A stretch of 13,177 bases of DNA, taken from contig RDNZ01000059.1 of the NCBI GenBank assembly GCA_011364905.1, positions 1 to 13,177 of the forward strand, read 5' to 3'. The stretch is from Candidatus Thorarchaeota archaeon (lineage in GTDB: Archaea; Asgardarchaeota; Thorarchaeia; Thorarchaeales; Thorarchaeaceae). Below are positions 2,696 to 8,870 of this stretch, piece by piece. The notes under the pieces were generated by a model. The model did no database searches. It worked only from the letters and a program-made list of their open reading frames with translations, and was not told where the DNA came from. A program made the translations under genes and the position numbers. Position 1 is the stretch's first letter. The number at the start of each line of letters is the position of its first letter.

Positions 2696-3970
2696 ATGCC
2701 GTTGACAGACTTTTCCACCGTTGCCAAGATTAAAGACCCTATACATGGATATGTTTCCTTAACCGCTCTGGAGAAGGAAATCATTGACCTGCGTCTTAGT
2801 CAGCGTCTGCGGTACATCCAAGGACCTGCTGGTTTGTCCTTGGTCTATCCGGGAGCCGCTATTTCTCTGATGGGTAGGACATTCGGTTTTATGCACATGA
2901 CCGAGATCTTTCTTGAGTATTTAGGTGCTGGAGTTGAAGAAGTTCTCAAAGGAAGATTAGCGGCGTTACTTCTCATGTTAACAAATGGCCCCTGGGCAAA
3001 TGTGTCTGAGGAGTATCTTTCCGTACGTGGGATCGACCGAACAAAGATTGCCGAAATAATCCTAAAAGAAAGTCAAGTTGGCGAGTTTGTTACGAAACAC
3101 GGGTATGCGTTGAATGAGGCAGTTGATTTTGTTCGCAAAGGAATACCGATTAAGAGCTATTTGATTGACCTCATCCACTGTCCAATCAATCCAGAGCTGA
3201 TTGATGACCTTGAACGCGATTCCTATTTTGCAGGAGTTGAATATGCTCAGTTAGAGTTCAGGAAACTATTCTCTGCCACACGAATTGCGAAGAATAAGAT
3301 TGCTGTCGAACGAAGTTCTCTATTCACGCTGGAGTCGTATCTTTCTGCCGCAGCGAATATGTTCGAAGCGGTTTATTTTCATAAGACTGTCCGAGCCGCT
3401 GAACTCATGCTGCTCAGGGTGCTTGATGAAGCTGGGTCTCAACTGTTTTCCTTACCCACTGAAGATTCAGCCTCGTTCATGGTGTGCGATGACCTCTCTT
3501 TTCTCTATCGTCTACTGCATGTCACGCCTGATGACTCAGATGAGTTAAAAACCGCAAATCGCATCTTTGATGATTTTAGAAGACGGAATCTCATAAAGCT
3601 CACCAGTTCTAGAGCAATATCTGACCCAACTTTCTTGGGGAAGCTATCCACCGCAGATGGGTTGTTCGAATTGGAGAAAGAGATTGCTGAGAGTGCGGGG
3701 ATCGACCCAGGAAATGTCTACATTGACTATCCTGATAGAGTGTCAGTCACATTCTACCCGAGTAGGTTCGGGTTTGAAGACCTTGCGCTTTTTGAAAGGG
3801 GATCTAGCGGCTATGAGTTTTGGCACGCTACTGACCTTAGTCCTATAGCACGAAGCTTCTCAAGGATTCTAAAACCAGTTCGAGTCTATACAACCCGCGG
3901 CTACAGGACTCGAGTAAAGAAAGCAGCAGACAGTCTTCTTGAGAGTGTCGATGCAGCTGGTATACAATAG
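2696..3970 (+). CDS. SAMHD1/dNTP triphosphohydrolase-like HD-domain protein, predicted catalytically inactive
   Basis: Family landmarks IKDPIHG, IID, QRLRYI, VYPGA, RLAALL, GP, ERDSYFAGV and MFEAVYFHKTVRAAELML are present. The HD dyad position reads LM and the HxRxEHS segment reads ISLMGRT. Confidence 0.85.
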   Translation: MPLTDFSTVAKIKDPIHGYVSLTALEKEIIDLRLSQRLRYIQGPAGLSLVYPGAAISLMGRTFGFMHMTEIFLEYLGAGVEEVLKGRLAALLLMLTNGPWANVSEEYLSVRGIDRTKIAEIILKESQVGEFVTKHGYALNEAVDFVRKGIPIKSYLIDLIHCPINPELIDDLERDSYFAGVEYAQLEFRKLFSATRIAKNKIAVERSSLFTLESYLSAAANMFEAVYFHKTVRAAELMLLRVLDEAGSQLFSLPTEDSASFMVCDDLSFLYRLLHVTPDDSDELKTANRIFDDFRRRNLIKLTSSRAISDPTFLGKLSTADGLFELEKEIAESAGIDPGNVYIDYPDRVSVTFYPSRFGFEDLALFERGSSGYEFWHATDLSPIARSFSRILKPVRVYTTRGYRTRVKKAADSLLESVDAAGIQ

Positions 3971-4032
3971 ACAGCTCCATTCCAAAATACATAATATACA
4001 TCAAGTCATTCTATGCACATTTGGTGAGGATA

Positions 4033-4524
4033 ATGAGTGATAAACCATTAGATGTATTTCAGCAGTTGATTACATCACCCAATTTCATCATGATCTTGGT
4101 TGGAGCAATCATCTGGTACTTGGGCTATTTTGTGCCCTGGATTAACCATTTCTTTACTGTTGCTGGGTTCGGATTAGCCTGCATAGCAACAGTGCAAGCG
4201 GCCATGACTAGACCAGTCACGTCTTCATTTCCTGGATTGTTGATTGGCGGTCTCATACAGGTATTGGGATATTATATGCTCCCATACCCTCTTGTGGGAA
4301 AGGTCATTGGAGGAGCTTTGGTAGTTTTCGGTGGAATTATGATTCTCTTCTACGGTTCTTCTCTGGCATTGCAGAGAATAGATATTCCCATAGTTAAGAA
4401 CCTAGAGGACTTCATTGACTCGAGAACGAAGAAACCTGCACCGAAGAAGAAAGAAAAAGTTGTCGATGTAGAAGAGGAAGAAGAAGAAGAGGAAGAAGAA
4501 GAGGAAGAAGAATCATCTGAGTAA
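4033..4524 (+). CDS. Small integral membrane protein (about 4 TM helices) with Lys-rich then poly-Glu C-terminal tail; unknown function
   Basis: ATG 4033 preceded by GGTGAGGA SD (ORF track starts at TTG 4021). Four hydrophobic segments. Tail is RTKKPAPKKKEKVVDV-E14-SSE. Confidence 0.8.
   Translation: MSDKPLDVFQQLITSPNFIMILVGAIIWYLGYFVPWINHFFTVAGFGLACIATVQAAMTRPVTSSFPGLLIGGLIQVLGYYMLPYPLVGKVIGGALVVFGGIMILFYGSSLALQRIDIPIVKNLEDFIDSRTKKPAPKKKEKVVDVEEEEEEEEEEEEEESSE
4471..4512 (+). repeat. (GAR)14 trinucleotide tract encoding 14 consecutive Glu
   Basis: gaa gag gaa gaa gaa gaa gag gaa gaa gaa gag gaa gaa gaa, in frame, three codons before the stop. Confidence 0.95.
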
Positions 4525-4604: not shown

Positions 4605-6932
4605 ATGGAAGTCACAAGTCCCCAATTACTCTCGCTCTTCCAGTGGTGCATTATAGTGTTCTCATGCAATAGGTGCGGCGATCCCCTATACATTCGTAGT
4701 GCTGAGATGAAGGACAAGATTTTGACAATGGATGTCCAATGTCTTAGAGGGCATAAGAGCGTCCGAAGACTTTCTGAAAACCAAGCCAATGAAATGGCTC
4801 ATGAGGTTTTCAAGAAACTGTATACTTGCACTGACTGTGGTTCGAATATGACCCTGATTGAAGAGCGTGGCCAGGGGAATAGCATTGAAGGTGTGTTTCT
4901 TTGCCCGATACATGGTCCGGAGAATAGAGAGTTCCCTCGGTCATTTCACGCTACAGTTGAACTAGCCGGTGCAGAGGTGAACAGCCCTCGTTCAATCATT
5001 GATTCTTTCAGGTGTCCTCAATGCGGTCTAGTGTATGCAGTGAACATCATAGATCAAAGGCGTGGTATCCTAGAGGTTGAAACTCGATGTGCCAATGGCC
5101 ATAGGACAACAAGATACTTACCAAGTAGCCTTGACACATCATTGCTCAAGAAAATTCTACAGCGAATTGTGCATTGCGACAAATGTGGATTGCCCGGACA
5201 TATCACAGAAGTAGAAAATCGAGGAAACACCACTCGACTTACGACAACTTGTCCAATTCATGGAGCAGCAAAGAAGGAGATTCTTTCAACTCAACTGGAC
5301 CTTCTTCAAGAGGCAATATCCGAAATTCCTGAAGATGCAGTTGTGAAGTCATCACTAACCTCCAATGACTGCAGTCATGCATTAGCAATCCGGAGCATCG
5401 AGGCGAACAAACAAGGATACAAACTGAAATGTGTTTGTCCTGGAACTAAGCACACTTCCGATAGAATCCTGCCACTCACATGGAGCGAACCAATTGTAGA
5501 TCGAATAGCAGTTGCCCTACTTACGTGTGATGAATGTGGAAGTCTTACTCATATTCTAGACACTAGAAAAACCAAGAAGCGAGTTGGTTTCAGAATTGTC
5601 TGCCCTACTCATGGTGTCATGAATCGCGATGTCCCGCCAGAGGTCTTCAGATATATCAGTGCACACCAAGCAAGTATTGACCGAATGCCATCCATCGTAA
5701 AGAATCTCAGTTGTGAAAAATGCAGTATGCCTCTGAATGTGAGAGATGTTGAGGAACGTCGTGGGTTGATCGAGTTTGATATGGACTGCAGAAATGGTCA
5801 TCGGACCAAAAGATTGTTTGTGCCAGGACTTGACAAAGAAACACTCACTGGATTGTATAAGAGGCTGTACCAATGCCCCGAGTGTTACGAGTCGCTCGAA
5901 CTGGTCTACATTGAGCCTCGCGACCGTGAGGATCGAGTTGTTCTTCTATGTACACTTCATGGTAAGATAGTCCTTGATATTCCACCAGACCATGCACAGG
6001 CAATGCAGAATGCTTACGACGAGCTTCAGAAAGACAAAACCAAACCTCCCATTGAGGCTGCCGAATCCCCCATGCCTGAAGTACTTGAAGCCTCCTCTGC
6101 TCCAGCAACTGCTAGCGAGTCTGGAGTTGTCGTTCACAGGGGATGCGAGATTGTTGGCGGAAAGTTCGACTTCAAGGTGAAAATTGTTAATGATAGCGGT
6201 TATGTTATCACGAACGCTACGGTTTCGATCATCGCTTACCCATTAGACTGTATGGAACTTGCTGGTGAAAGTGTCAAGACAATATCAAGGATTGAGGTGA
6301 GTGGATTTAGAAGTCCACAATTCACACTATATCCAACAAAAGACTGCGTTCAAGGGAAGGTTGTTGCCACTGTTTCCTACATTGACTTCATGGACCAGCT
6401 GCACACCATCAGTGTCGAGCCATATCTGATACGTTCTGTCTGTGATCTTCTTCTGCCATCAAAGAAGACGACAGAAGCTTTTGAGCTTGTGCTATCCGGT
6501 CTTGAAAGGACACAACAGGAACAGACCCTAGACTGGAACTCTCAAGTTCTCTTTACTAAAACTGAGAAGATATTGCCTGCCAAGAACTTTCACATCGTTG
6601 ATACTGAAGAACGAATCGTTGGTGGAGAATTCATTGGAACAATTAGAGGCTATGCAGAAGGCAAATACACTCAGAAAAAGGTCGCAGTTATCATTCTAAT
6701 AAGCGGACCTGAAAATGGGCGCCACTCCTGTGTTAAGGTTGAAGCGCTTGGTGAAGATGTAGCAATGCTACCTACCACCATCGATGAACTAGCAGATACA
6801 ATGGACTCTTGGATTTGTCTTCGTTGCGGTGCTCCATTAGAACCTGAGCAGGTTGAAGAGATGGGTCGCAGACTTCCAATTCGTTGCAAATACTGCGATC
6901 ACACTCTGACCATCGCACTTTATCTCCAATAA
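4605..6932 (+). CDS. Multi-zinc-ribbon repeat protein A: 8 C3H modules, Pro/Ala linker, Ig-like plus platform (adaptin/coatomer appendage-like) region, terminal C4 zinc ribbon
   Basis: Long ORF. Modules begin at C21, C75, C137, C191, S253, C308, C370 and C424 (775-aa numbering). Terminal CLRC-x19-CKYC. The true start may be GTG 4656 (GGTG 7 nt upstream; close to the N-terminus of the paralogue). The appendage call comes from an alignment by eye. Confidence 0.8.
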   Translation: MEVTSPQLLSLFQWCIIVFSCNRCGDPLYIRSAEMKDKILTMDVQCLRGHKSVRRLSENQANEMAHEVFKKLYTCTDCGSNMTLIEERGQGNSIEGVFLCPIHGPENREFPRSFHATVELAGAEVNSPRSIIDSFRCPQCGLVYAVNIIDQRRGILEVETRCANGHRTTRYLPSSLDTSLLKKILQRIVHCDKCGLPGHITEVENRGNTTRLTTTCPIHGAAKKEILSTQLDLLQEAISEIPEDAVVKSSLTSNDCSHALAIRSIEANKQGYKLKCVCPGTKHTSDRILPLTWSEPIVDRIAVALLTCDECGSLTHILDTRKTKKRVGFRIVCPTHGVMNRDVPPEVFRYISAHQASIDRMPSIVKNLSCEKCSMPLNVRDVEERRGLIEFDMDCRNGHRTKRLFVPGLDKETLTGLYKRLYQCPECYESLELVYIEPRDREDRVVLLCTLHGKIVLDIPPDHAQAMQNAYDELQKDKTKPPIEAAESPMPEVLEASSAPATASESGVVVHRGCEIVGGKFDFKVKIVNDSGYVITNATVSIIAYPLDCMELAGESVKTISRIEVSGFRSPQFTLYPTKDCVQGKVVATVSYIDFMDQLHTISVEPYLIRSVCDLLLPSKKTTEAFELVLSGLERTQQEQTLDWNSQVLFTKTEKILPAKNFHIVDTEERIVGGEFIGTIRGYAEGKYTQKKVAVIILISGPENGRHSCVKVEALGEDVAMLPTTIDELADTMDSWICLRCGAPLEPEQVEEMGRRLPIRCKYCDHTLTIALYLQ

Positions 6933-7007
6933 AACCGAATTTTGTTTGTACGTAACATCTTTTAGGAACCTCGTAGAACAACTGGGTGTTTCGCCGCCGC
7001 GCGCCAA

Positions 7008-8870
7008 GTGGAGGAGAACACGATTTTCACTTGCAAGAAATGTAAGGAACCTTTCTACGTTCAGGCTGGCGAGCTACGAGGTCAGACTCTCAGAGTGTAT
7101 TGTCAATGCCTTAATGGTCACAAGGGGAAGAGGGATATTTCAAGATACCAAGCTGACAGTATGGCCAATGAGGTATTTGAGGGAATATTCACATGTATCG
7201 AATGCGGGTCTACCATGACTCTGATGAACACTGATGTTGGTCGTCGTAAAGCTGAGTATACTTTCATCTGTCCCATACATAGTATTCAGAGGCGAGAGAT
7301 ACCTGAATTCTATCATAGCGCTGTTGCGGGCCTTCAAGGTAGTTTGAATAGTTCCAAATCTATTCTTGATTCCTTGAGTTGTCCCAAGTGCGGCAACGTT
7401 TTTGCTGTTTCAGAAGTCGCAGAAAAAAAGGGTATTCTTGAGGTCAAAACGCGATGTCCCAATGGACACAAAGAGATGAGGTACATCCCGAAGGTTGCTG
7501 ATGAGTCCGTATTAAAGACAGTTGTAAAACGTTTCATTCACTGTGATGAATGTGGATTACCTTGTCAGGTGCTAGGAACTCAACCCAAAGGAAACAACGC
7601 ACAAGTAGAAATTAATTGTCCAGCTCATGGAAAAACGAAGAAGCAGCTTCCTGCTGAGTATACATGGATGATTGAATCAATAGTGGAAGCGATGTCTGAG
7701 GGAAGCATTGTAAGGTCCATGTTGAACTGCCGTGACTGTGGAGAGTCTTTATCGATAAAGTCTGTTGAACTCGATAAAATGAAGTATAAGATCAAAGCTG
7801 CTTGTTCGAATGGCCACAATACTGAGCTCTCACAGCCTTCTGATCTTGATGAGGAAGCCATTGACGCCATTATTGGTGGAATACTAAAATGCAATGATTG
7901 TAGTTCTGTTACTGACATTGCTGAAACCAAAATTAACGGCAATGATGTGGAAGTAAAGCTTGTATGTCCCATTCATGGTGACATGAAGAAGAATGTAAGC
8001 ATGGGGATCTTCAAGCATCTCGAGGAACGTAACAAGCATATCGATAGAATTCCTTCCACTGAAGAAAGCCTCAAGTGTGAGAAATGCAAAACTCAGCTAT
8101 CCATACGAGAGGCAAAAGTTCGCGATGACATTATAGAACTGAAGATGGAATGCCGCAATGGGCATGGGAGTACAAGATACCTCTCTGTTGGGGCCAATGA
8201 ATCTGTCGTTGAGCGCTTCTATAAACAGCTCTACGAGTGCCATAAATGCCACGGTCCATTGAGCCTATCCTTCATTGAAGATAAAGGTGACAAGTCAGAG
8301 GCTGTGTTGGACTGTGTAAACCACGGTGAGAGTAGGGTGGAGATTCCTGCCGCACACGCAGCAATCGCACGAGACGCATACCTATCAACCAAATCCATGA
8401 CGGACCTTGAAAAAATCTTGGAGACTCGTTTGCAGACAGAGAGAGCCGCAGAATATCAGATCGAACCAGATGCGGACATCCAAGAGATGATGGATATAGT
8501 CAACGATGTCATTGAACAGCAGAGTGTCATGTTCATCGGTGAAAAGAGCGGCACTAAGAATGGCGAAGAATCATGGTATTATGGGAAAGCTCGTGCCGGG
8601 ACTGAATACATCGTGATTGGTTCGGTATCGAAAGACAACTTGACAATGCGGATCTCAGTCGCAAGTGATGACGAGAGTAAACTCAACTTGCTATTATCAG
8701 AAATGCGCGATAGACTCAGAGAAGTGCTTCTGAAGCTTCAGGCGAAGACTGGTGACACGGCACCCCAAAAGATTGAGTGCGCAAACTGTGGTGCTGCACT
8801 TGCCAAACGAGCTCTTCCTGGTGAAACTGTGATCTGCGAACACTGTGGAACACCATTGCATTGGGGTTAG
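7008..8870 (+). CDS. Multi-zinc-ribbon repeat protein B (paralogue of A): 8 C3H modules, platform-like alpha/beta domain, terminal C4 zinc ribbon
   Basis: Modules begin at C9, C63, C125, C179, C241, C295, C357 and C411 (alternating 54/62 spacing). Terminal CANC-x15-CEHC. Collinear with protein A over about 450 aa but lacks its linker and Ig-like segment. Confidence 0.82.
   Translation: MEENTIFTCKKCKEPFYVQAGELRGQTLRVYCQCLNGHKGKRDISRYQADSMANEVFEGIFTCIECGSTMTLMNTDVGRRKAEYTFICPIHSIQRREIPEFYHSAVAGLQGSLNSSKSILDSLSCPKCGNVFAVSEVAEKKGILEVKTRCPNGHKEMRYIPKVADESVLKTVVKRFIHCDECGLPCQVLGTQPKGNNAQVEINCPAHGKTKKQLPAEYTWMIESIVEAMSEGSIVRSMLNCRDCGESLSIKSVELDKMKYKIKAACSNGHNTELSQPSDLDEEAIDAIIGGILKCNDCSSVTDIAETKINGNDVEVKLVCPIHGDMKKNVSMGIFKHLEERNKHIDRIPSTEESLKCEKCKTQLSIREAKVRDDIIELKMECRNGHGSTRYLSVGANESVVERFYKQLYECHKCHGPLSLSFIEDKGDKSEAVLDCVNHGESRVEIPAAHAAIARDAYLSTKSMTDLEKILETRLQTERAAEYQIEPDADIQEMMDIVNDVIEQQSVMFIGEKSGTKNGEESWYYGKARAGTEYIVIGSVSKDNLTMRISVASDDESKLNLLLSEMRDRLREVLLKLQAKTGDTAPQKIECANCGAALAKRALPGETVICEHCGTPLHWG

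Follow-up and report, generated by a model that had tools for sequence, protein, structure and literature searches.

Two Thorarchaeota genes predicted to encode twin zinc-ribbon arrays joined to ear-like C-terminal parts

Genes A and B and their ribbon arrays

The window analysed here is a 13,177-nucleotide (nt) stretch of DNA, contig 59 (RDNZ01000059.1) of a Candidatus Thorarchaeota genome of 3.08 Mb in 95 contigs (GCA_011364905.1). It carries two tandem genes, here called A and B, each of which encodes a periodic array of predicted zinc ribbons followed by a C-terminal part resembling the ear (appendage) of adaptins. The closest homologues of the window proteins all carry Thorarchaeota labels. 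Gene A (4656..6932, plus strand) encodes 758 amino acids (aa) from a GTG start at 4656 in the list of open reading frames (ORFs). An ATG at 4605 would give a 775-aa product with 17 extra residues; we took the GTG as the start because most A homologues (741–758 aa) begin at the equivalent position. A TATA-like TTTAAAA is found at about 4563, upstream of gene A. Gene B (7008..8870, plus strand; 620 aa, GTG start at 7008) follows in the same direction after a gap of 75 nt that includes a T-rich stretch.

We scanned the translations of A and B with the regular expression C-x2-C-x21-C-x2-3-H. B contains eight complete modules, starting at residues 9, 63, 125, 179, 241, 295, 357 and 411 (spacings strictly 54, 62, 54, 62, 54, 62 and 54), that is, a period of exactly 116 aa. 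A (775-aa numbering) contains seven complete modules at 21, 75, 137, 191, 308, 370 and 424 plus a degenerate fifth; the step from 191 to 308 is 117 aa, so that unit 3 is one residue longer than the others. These spacings, including the single 1-aa insertion in A, are those of the original prediction, which had been made from the DNA letters and their translations. Its alternation of two motifs is also borne out by the scan: odd modules end in C-x-[NR]-G-H (C-x3-H) and even modules in C-[PTV]-x-H, mostly with G next. The repeat extends, as had been proposed, from 4665 (the first Cys codon of A) to 8324 (the last His codon of B module 8).

Eight C-x2-C-x21 modules had been claimed for each protein, and this needs one amendment. 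The 21-residue spacer is present in all 16 modules, while the full C3H ligand set, i.e. the two knuckles with two ligands each that mark a zinc ribbon in general, is found in 15 of the 16 and is conserved family-wide. The exception is module 5 of A, which has Ser instead of the first Cys (S-N-D-C) and C-P-G-T-K-H as its second knuckle but retains the spacer. Of 41 A-family sequences, 40 have Ser, Ala or Thr at the first ligand position of this module; the orthologue from a sister family (P0211) has an intact module 5 (C, C, C, H) and lacks all four ligands of module 3. Since module 5 is degenerate, A probably has about eight metal sites rather than the nine or so proposed for each protein.

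Two consecutive modules, one odd and one even, make up a twin-ribbon unit, and each array has four such units (all on the plus strand). Those of A are unit 1 (modules 1 and 2; 4656..4988; unit-profile E 1.9e-37; best hhalign match B unit 1), unit 2 (modules 3 and 4; 4989..5336; E 4.3e-38), unit 3 (modules 5 and 6; 5337..5687; 117 aa) and unit 4 (modules 7 and 8; 5688..6035; E 1.9e-35), recognised by their motifs and, for units 1, 2 and 4, also by hhalign. The array of B (7008..8399) consists of four 116-aa units at 7008-7355, 7356-7703, 7704-8051 and 8052-8399, with unit-profile E-values of 3.8e-36 to 7.2e-41.

As far as conservation in homologues tells, the regularity of the repeat is a property of the family and not just of this genome. 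Among about 200 homologues, the spacer is exactly 21 in 1346 of 1357 modules, and the module spacing is 54 in 572 cases and 62 in 448 cases, a regularity well outside chance expectation. According to the two family alignments, nearly all ligand positions of modules 2–8 are invariant and the remainder are at least 90% conserved, module 1 is missing only in sequences truncated at the N-terminus, and the array region (about 440 columns) has only 1–3 insertion columns. The units are 17–25% identical, yet gapless over about 105 columns, in agreement with the earlier remark that length is conserved and sequence is not. The arrays of Thorarchaeota are close to neutral, with a net charge of –2 to +1 over 460 residues and an isoelectric point (pI) of 5.5–8.7 in the family. 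No transmembrane segment is predicted in A or B, as expected by the original prediction.

Profile comparisons also tell something of the history of the repeat. All unit pairs of A and B match by hhalign with a probability of 96–100%, and each B unit has the same-numbered A unit as its best match (E 1e-38 to 1e-49). Over 458 columns, the alignment of the two arrays (37% identity) needs just one 1-residue indel. Because the units match by number and the arrays are collinear apart from this indel, we consider the four units homologous and the quadruplication older, by these comparisons, than the A/B duplication. No tandem repeat was found in the window at the DNA level by Tandem Repeats Finder, which indicates that the repeat is old. 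Odd and even modules show only moderate likeness to each other (probability up to 94%).

We built AlphaFold2 models of A and B with the family alignments (B: predicted local distance difference test (pLDDT) 89.1, predicted template modelling score (pTM) 0.70; A: pLDDT 81.3, pTM 0.52). Every module in both models is predicted with confidence as a zinc ribbon (a knuckle, two long strands, a knuckle and a third strand, then helices), with a three-stranded antiparallel sheet in which one knuckle precedes strand 1 and the other separates strands 2 and 3, so the modelling favours the proposed metal-ribbon repeat. In each ribbon, a single structural metal ion (most likely zinc) would be bound by the C-x2-C and C-x2-3-H knuckles at the foot of the long three-stranded sheet. 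A structural rather than catalytic metal fits the sequences, since the Cys3-His ligands occupy classical ribbon positions and the loss of ligands from a module leaves its length unchanged, as seen for module 5 in the A family and for module 3 in P0211. The metal would fix the fold, and selection would keep the geometry and length of the trunk and not its sequence.

Distribution of the twin-ribbon unit

Neither the array nor the single unit has a match above threshold in Pfam, NCBIfam or PADLOC, sub-threshold or at-threshold matches to single knuckles aside. Among the latter, Zn_ribbon_recom (PF13408; cut-off 25.3) gives 24.8 bits for B and 26.5 bits for a 93% homologue, covering one module and positions 2–29 of the 58 in the model; a TFIIB ribbon match reaches 28.7 bits against a cut-off of 29, and bL33 E 0.055. 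Matches to the topoisomerase I ribbon (PF01396) are weak too (Pfam E 0.24 in one homologue, and E 2.2–2.4 for topoisomerase I in the PDB). Profiles of the small-protein alignment (see below) and of the pooled units, searched against all PDB sequences at E up to 10, retrieved only generic ribbons (HypA, bL33, LysW, Rpo12) with E above 0.003. The best scores in ESM Atlas, 0.81–0.83, are at chance level. The papers that we searched contain no description of the twin-ribbon unit or of the four-fold array, and a recent preprint on structural clustering of Asgard proteins does not mention zinc ribbons.

The even module had been likened to the rubredoxin-like domain of Tes/GDGT-MAS, and our searches lend no support to this likeness. 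No Tes/GDGT-MAS chain was among the PDB profile matches at E up to 10 (the presence of such an entry in our PDB copy was not checked), and A and B, unlike Tes/GDGT-MAS, have no Radical_SAM match in Pfam.

The phylum search used the B array as query against 400 genomes. Full arrays were found only in the window's own family (68 of its 85 genomes) and in a sister family represented by a single genome. Six other families gave weak matches (E 1e-9 to 1e-4), nearly all of about one unit of the query, in ORFs of about 160–260 aa. In these single-unit proteins, a low-complexity linker connects two C-x2-C-x21-C-P-x-H ribbons, which are 54–56 residues apart, to a tail with a C4 double zinc ribbon. The twin-ribbon part of these proteins matches each of the A and B units in register (hhalign probability 97.4–98.8%), and an alignment of the eight window units with four of the small proteins is nearly gapless over about 105 columns, with 14–39% identity to the first unit. 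When 5.8 billion proteins were searched with a profile, 127 clusters were retrieved at E ≤0.001; those with names carry Heimdall-, Hod-, Hermod-, Odin- or "Prometh"-archaeota labels and are called just "zinc-ribbon domain-containing protein". Judged by these profile matches, the 116-aa twin-ribbon unit is a domain spread across Asgard archaea, mostly in single copy, and Loki-labelled MAGs are also among those in which it occurs singly. The novelty proposed for the array is thereby qualified: we know of no named family for it in Pfam, NCBIfam, PADLOC, the PDB sequences or the literature searched, and its building block is found outside it. The unit profile has no matches in the window's own genome other than the eight A and B units.

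The small Asgard proteins of about 160 aa share the unit with A and B, in register. They differ in having one unit, in being strongly basic (pI 9.4–9.8, net charge +8 to +13 over 105 residues), in lacking an ear and, for some, in having the unit behind transmembrane helices; their public names derive only from the C-terminal ribbon. The unit follows 2–4 transmembrane helices in about a dozen clusters. We note some forms that look intermediate: P0360 (289 aa) has two units, with modules at 12, 66, 142 and 196, and in P0458, P0473 and P0475 (253–281 aa) four transmembrane helices precede the unit. A 583-aa protein from another Asgard family (L014:3658-5409) shares the layout of A with only one unit, its parts being the unit, C4 ribbons, a PCI-like winged helix, an A-type ear and a terminal ribbon.

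Single-unit genes often adjoin translation genes, e.g. those for GatD, a ribosomal protein with an L2 C-terminal domain, TrmI and an aminoacyl-tRNA synthetase. Their neighbourhoods vary and are not conserved. One Asgard genome has a single-unit gene between two genes for B12-binding radical-SAM proteins of 486 aa each (L015:2252-3712 and 4960-6420).

The C-terminal parts and the ear family

Downstream of its array, A has an acidic Pro/Ala/Glu-rich linker or hinge (6036..6125; pI 4.3), modelled with low confidence (pLDDT <50 for residues 464–488), then an ear composed of an immunoglobulin (Ig)-like beta-sandwich (6126..6455) and a platform of the TBP-like/helix-grip type (6456..6809), and finally a C4 zinc ribbon (6810..6929). 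B has neither hinge nor Ig sandwich; its platform (8400..8762) directly follows the array and is followed by a C4 ribbon (8763..8867). The four Cys residues of each terminal ribbon (C721, C724, C744 and C747 in A; C591, C594, C610 and C613 in B) are invariant in the family alignments. The terminal ribbon of A gives a weak DUF7479 match (26.5 bits against a cut-off of 27). Within the A family alignment, the frequency of the majority residue is 0.66 in the array, 0.82–0.89 in the ear and lowest, 0.47, in the hinge.

The order of the two subdomains in the model of A, an Ig-like sandwich and then a platform, is that of the adaptin/COPI appendage, of which B would have only the platform. We compared residues 458–577 of B with 48,161 PDB representatives, and the top four are all appendage platforms: beta2-adaptin (3h1z, score 11.7; further values listed for the comparison, 3.2 and 105), alpha-adaptin (1w80, 11.3), AP-4 beta4 (2mj7, 10.7; 111 of 141) and gamma-COP (1r4x, 9.7). 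Unrelated helix-grip folds score at most 9.2, and a repeat comparison kept the same order. Membership in the Pfam families Alpha_adaptinC2 or B2-adapt-app_C was not found: the best match of B to B2-adapt-app_C has E 0.17 and 12.3 bits against a cut-off of 22.6, and A has no match. As the sequence link is not significant, we use the label "ear-like fold": the C-terminal parts of A and B are, by their predicted structures, ear-like folds and not members of the Pfam adaptin families.

A profile of A was run against 1.84 billion representative proteins, giving 500 proteins at E ≤0.001, of which 164 reach E ≤1e-30. Among the best 150 of these 500, the match is confined to the ear and the C4 ribbon in nearly all cases. 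Many of the ear proteins are 600–2800 aa long; in these, an N-terminal signal or anchor is followed by ectodomains of the NosD/beta-helix, SBBP propeller, LVIVD or TSP3 type and then by a single transmembrane helix, 20–45 residues ahead of the ear. Named examples of the family are from Thorarchaeota, plus one from Lokiarchaeota. The ear with C4 ribbon of A belongs to a large Asgard family in which this module is mostly the cytoplasmic tail of membrane proteins. Phylum-wide, the ear is found in 75 of the 85 genomes of the window's family and, patchily, in nine other families.

The window's genome has five further ear genes, four of them with an N-terminal membrane anchor. Three ear-plus-C4-ribbon genes (404, 377 and 349 aa) lie within about 5.4 kb of contig 15 (G000, 183085-188042; L024:6669-12058), each with one N-terminal transmembrane helix and with two membrane-protein ORFs between the first and the second; the fourth anchored one (338 aa) is near 129 kb of contig 36. 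Three Thorarchaeota proteins of 755–793 aa (P0208, P0209 and P0213) have the ears closest to that of A (E 1e-172 to 1e-212). We considered them as A orthologues without an array and rejected this, as they have a helical N-terminus and two tandem ear-plus-C4-ribbon modules.

Interpretation and genomic context

We read A and B as soluble, cytoplasmic, zinc-stabilised and multivalent docking scaffolds or adaptors that would work near the membrane, and put the probability of this reading at about 0.5. The trunk of each protein would be formed by the four twin-ribbon units, i.e. eight zinc ribbons, and docking would be the task of the C-terminal module, which comprises the acidic hinge, the sandwich and platform of the ear and the C4 ribbon in A, and the platform and C4 ribbon in B. 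Since many surface and membrane proteins of Thorarchaeota have the ear-plus-ribbon module of A as their cytoplasmic tail, we place both proteins on the cytoplasmic side of the membrane, where they would serve an ear network as multivalent docking pieces. We counted as support for a docking scaffold that the arrays are near neutral, unlike typical polyanion binders, and that the ear is more conserved than the array in A; the unit behind 2–4 transmembrane helices in some Asgard proteins speaks for membrane-proximal docking. LIM-domain proteins and the zinc-ribbon tail of bacterial topoisomerase I are known examples in which strings of small structural zinc modules serve as binding platforms. LIM modules have a different fold from the ribbons of A and B, and neither LIM proteins nor the topoisomerase I tail has significant sequence similarity to them, so the analogy is functional only.

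Several observations weigh against the docking scaffold. No trafficking, ESCRT (endosomal sorting complex required for transport) or GTPase gene is found near A/B, and no partner is known. Several genera of the family lack both genes in an otherwise intact locus, so their function is dispensable. The strong basicity of the single-unit relatives and their frequent position beside translation genes point to nucleic-acid or membrane binding as the ancestral role of the unit.

These same relatives speak for a different reading, in which the array binds nucleic acid (either single-stranded DNA or RNA) in the manner of the tandem ribbons of topoisomerase I or the zinc ribbons of ribosomal proteins, with the ear as only a tether. 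The weak profile matches (Zn_ribbon_recom, TFIIB and bL33) are also all to nucleic-acid-binding ribbons. However, each of these matches is limited to a single knuckle and scores under or at its threshold, the neighbourhoods of the small-protein genes are not conserved, the Thorarchaeota arrays have almost no net charge (–2 to +1), and the array is fused to a protein-docking fold that is otherwise tied to membranes. We regard nucleic-acid binding by A and B as rather unlikely.

Among known systems, those closest to the docking scaffold in their ear are the adaptor, COPI and BBSome ears (AP-2 alpha and beta2, AP-4 beta4, gamma-COP/beta-COP, and the GAE-plus-platform of the BBSome). Eukaryotic adaptors have an alpha-solenoid or propeller as trunk, whereas A and B have a zinc-ribbon array, and a C4 ribbon after the platform. 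The hinge-to-trunk arrangement of a heterotetrameric adaptor is thus seen in A only as to the hinge, the trunk being the ribbon array; no adaptor subunit genes were found near A/B, and the coat, clathrin or GTPase partner of the eukaryotic ear systems has no known counterpart for A/B.

Within archaea, including Asgard archaea, Ig-plus-TBP-like appendage regions have been described in multidomain proteins, often with zinc ribbons, and are presumed to be interaction hubs (Makarova et al. 2024, doi 10.1101/2024.02.06.579148). Most of the Asgard proteins in that work have a Vps28-C or steadiness-box domain, frequently alongside longin, TPR, IG-like or HTH/PCI domains; its euryarchaeal proteins sit in ESCRT loci. 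A and B differ from the proteins described there in having none of the Vps28-C, steadiness-box and associated domains, and their locus has no ESCRT gene; a four-unit twin-ribbon trunk is not mentioned in the text that we read. What is new here is the 116-aa unit as an Asgard-wide domain, while appendage-like regions alongside zinc ribbons in ESCRT-linked Asgard proteins were already known.

A bolder version of the scaffold reading takes the unit as an undescribed Asgard-specific domain that was multiplied in Thorarchaeota into a rigid trunk taking the role of the adaptin alpha-solenoid, with A and B as soluble adaptors linking ear-tailed surface proteins to a membrane-remodelling or sorting machinery. 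We consider this version a long shot; if true, it would mean that a coat-adaptor-like system was built independently in the closest archaeal relatives of eukaryotes. Asgard archaea are being searched for the parts behind eukaryotic membrane trafficking, and ear-like domains are already on the list. Our additions are a twin zinc-ribbon domain that has no name so far and is spread over Asgard lineages, the ear-joined trunk to which it was expanded four-fold, and evidence that the ear-plus-ribbon module is a common cytoplasmic tail of many surface proteins. Should the pieces interact, they would make up a docking network near the membrane that can be tested; otherwise, the family would still be a clean and well-conserved basis for a new domain family and for work on metal and structure.

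The original prediction suggested that A and B might pair, and an obligate heterodimer closing into a ring or arc would suit the adjacent, co-directed genes (seen in the window's genus and some others), the collinearity of the arrays over 458 columns and the closeness of each A unit to the B unit of the same number. The distribution of the genes speaks otherwise. Most genera of the family carry A only, one genus has mostly B only (including a single-contig genome that marker genes rate as 77% complete), and another genome, which is complete, has A at the usual site and B 1.7 Mb away. From these three facts, A and B are unlikely to be obligate partners of each other, and we find the ring or arc improbable.

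The distant B of that complete genome lies 147 nt downstream, on the same strand, of an SPFH/Band-7 gene with a double zinc ribbon (L023:4578-5453). The pairing of SPFH/Band-7 with a double zinc ribbon has been linked to archaeal adaptin-type ESCRT loci by Makarova et al. (doi 10.1101/2024.02.06.579148).

The usual site has a gene order that recurs across the family: HD_assoc_2, a small ORF, A, B, a flavoprotein (on the other strand), DUF2070, PadR and an ABC transporter. The HD_assoc_2 gene (2696-3970, plus strand; 424 aa; Pfam) and the 167-aa ORF (4021-4524, plus strand) are the upstream neighbours in the window. The HD_assoc_2 match is limited to residues 189–358, with no Pfam match to an HD domain, and the protein may be SAMHD1/dGTPase-like without a recognisable catalytic domain. 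In almost all family genomes having these genes, its orthologue immediately precedes A, or B if there is no A, which could suggest a nucleotide-sensing or defence system made of A, B, the SAMHD1-like protein and the small membrane protein. Against this, four genomes, each of a different genus, keep the whole block from HD_assoc_2 to the ABC transporter with the flavoprotein gene next to the small ORF and neither A nor B in place, the sister-family orthologue has different neighbours, B is found elsewhere (after the SPFH gene) in one genome, and none of the four proteins has a PADLOC match. We therefore rejected HD_assoc_2 as a conserved operon partner, its partnership with A and B being synteny only, and hold a defence system to be even less probable than the ring or arc. 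Least credible of all is that the sites bind iron in a rubredoxin-like redox carrier or metal store, as eight or nine Cys-rich mononuclear sites per chain and the downstream flavoprotein gene might hint, given that Cys3-His in a long-stranded ribbon is typical of structural zinc, modules lose ligands without being lost, PDB profile searches gave no match to rubredoxin or Tes/GDGT-MAS, and the flavoprotein gene is kept in loci without A and B.

Every genome of the family has a second HD_assoc_2 copy (about 30% identity), which in the window's genome is on contig 7 (59792-61048). The window further contains two adjoining M28 peptidase genes on the minus strand (3-734 and 748-2604), and the longer product (618 aa) also has a bacterial TSP3 repeat.

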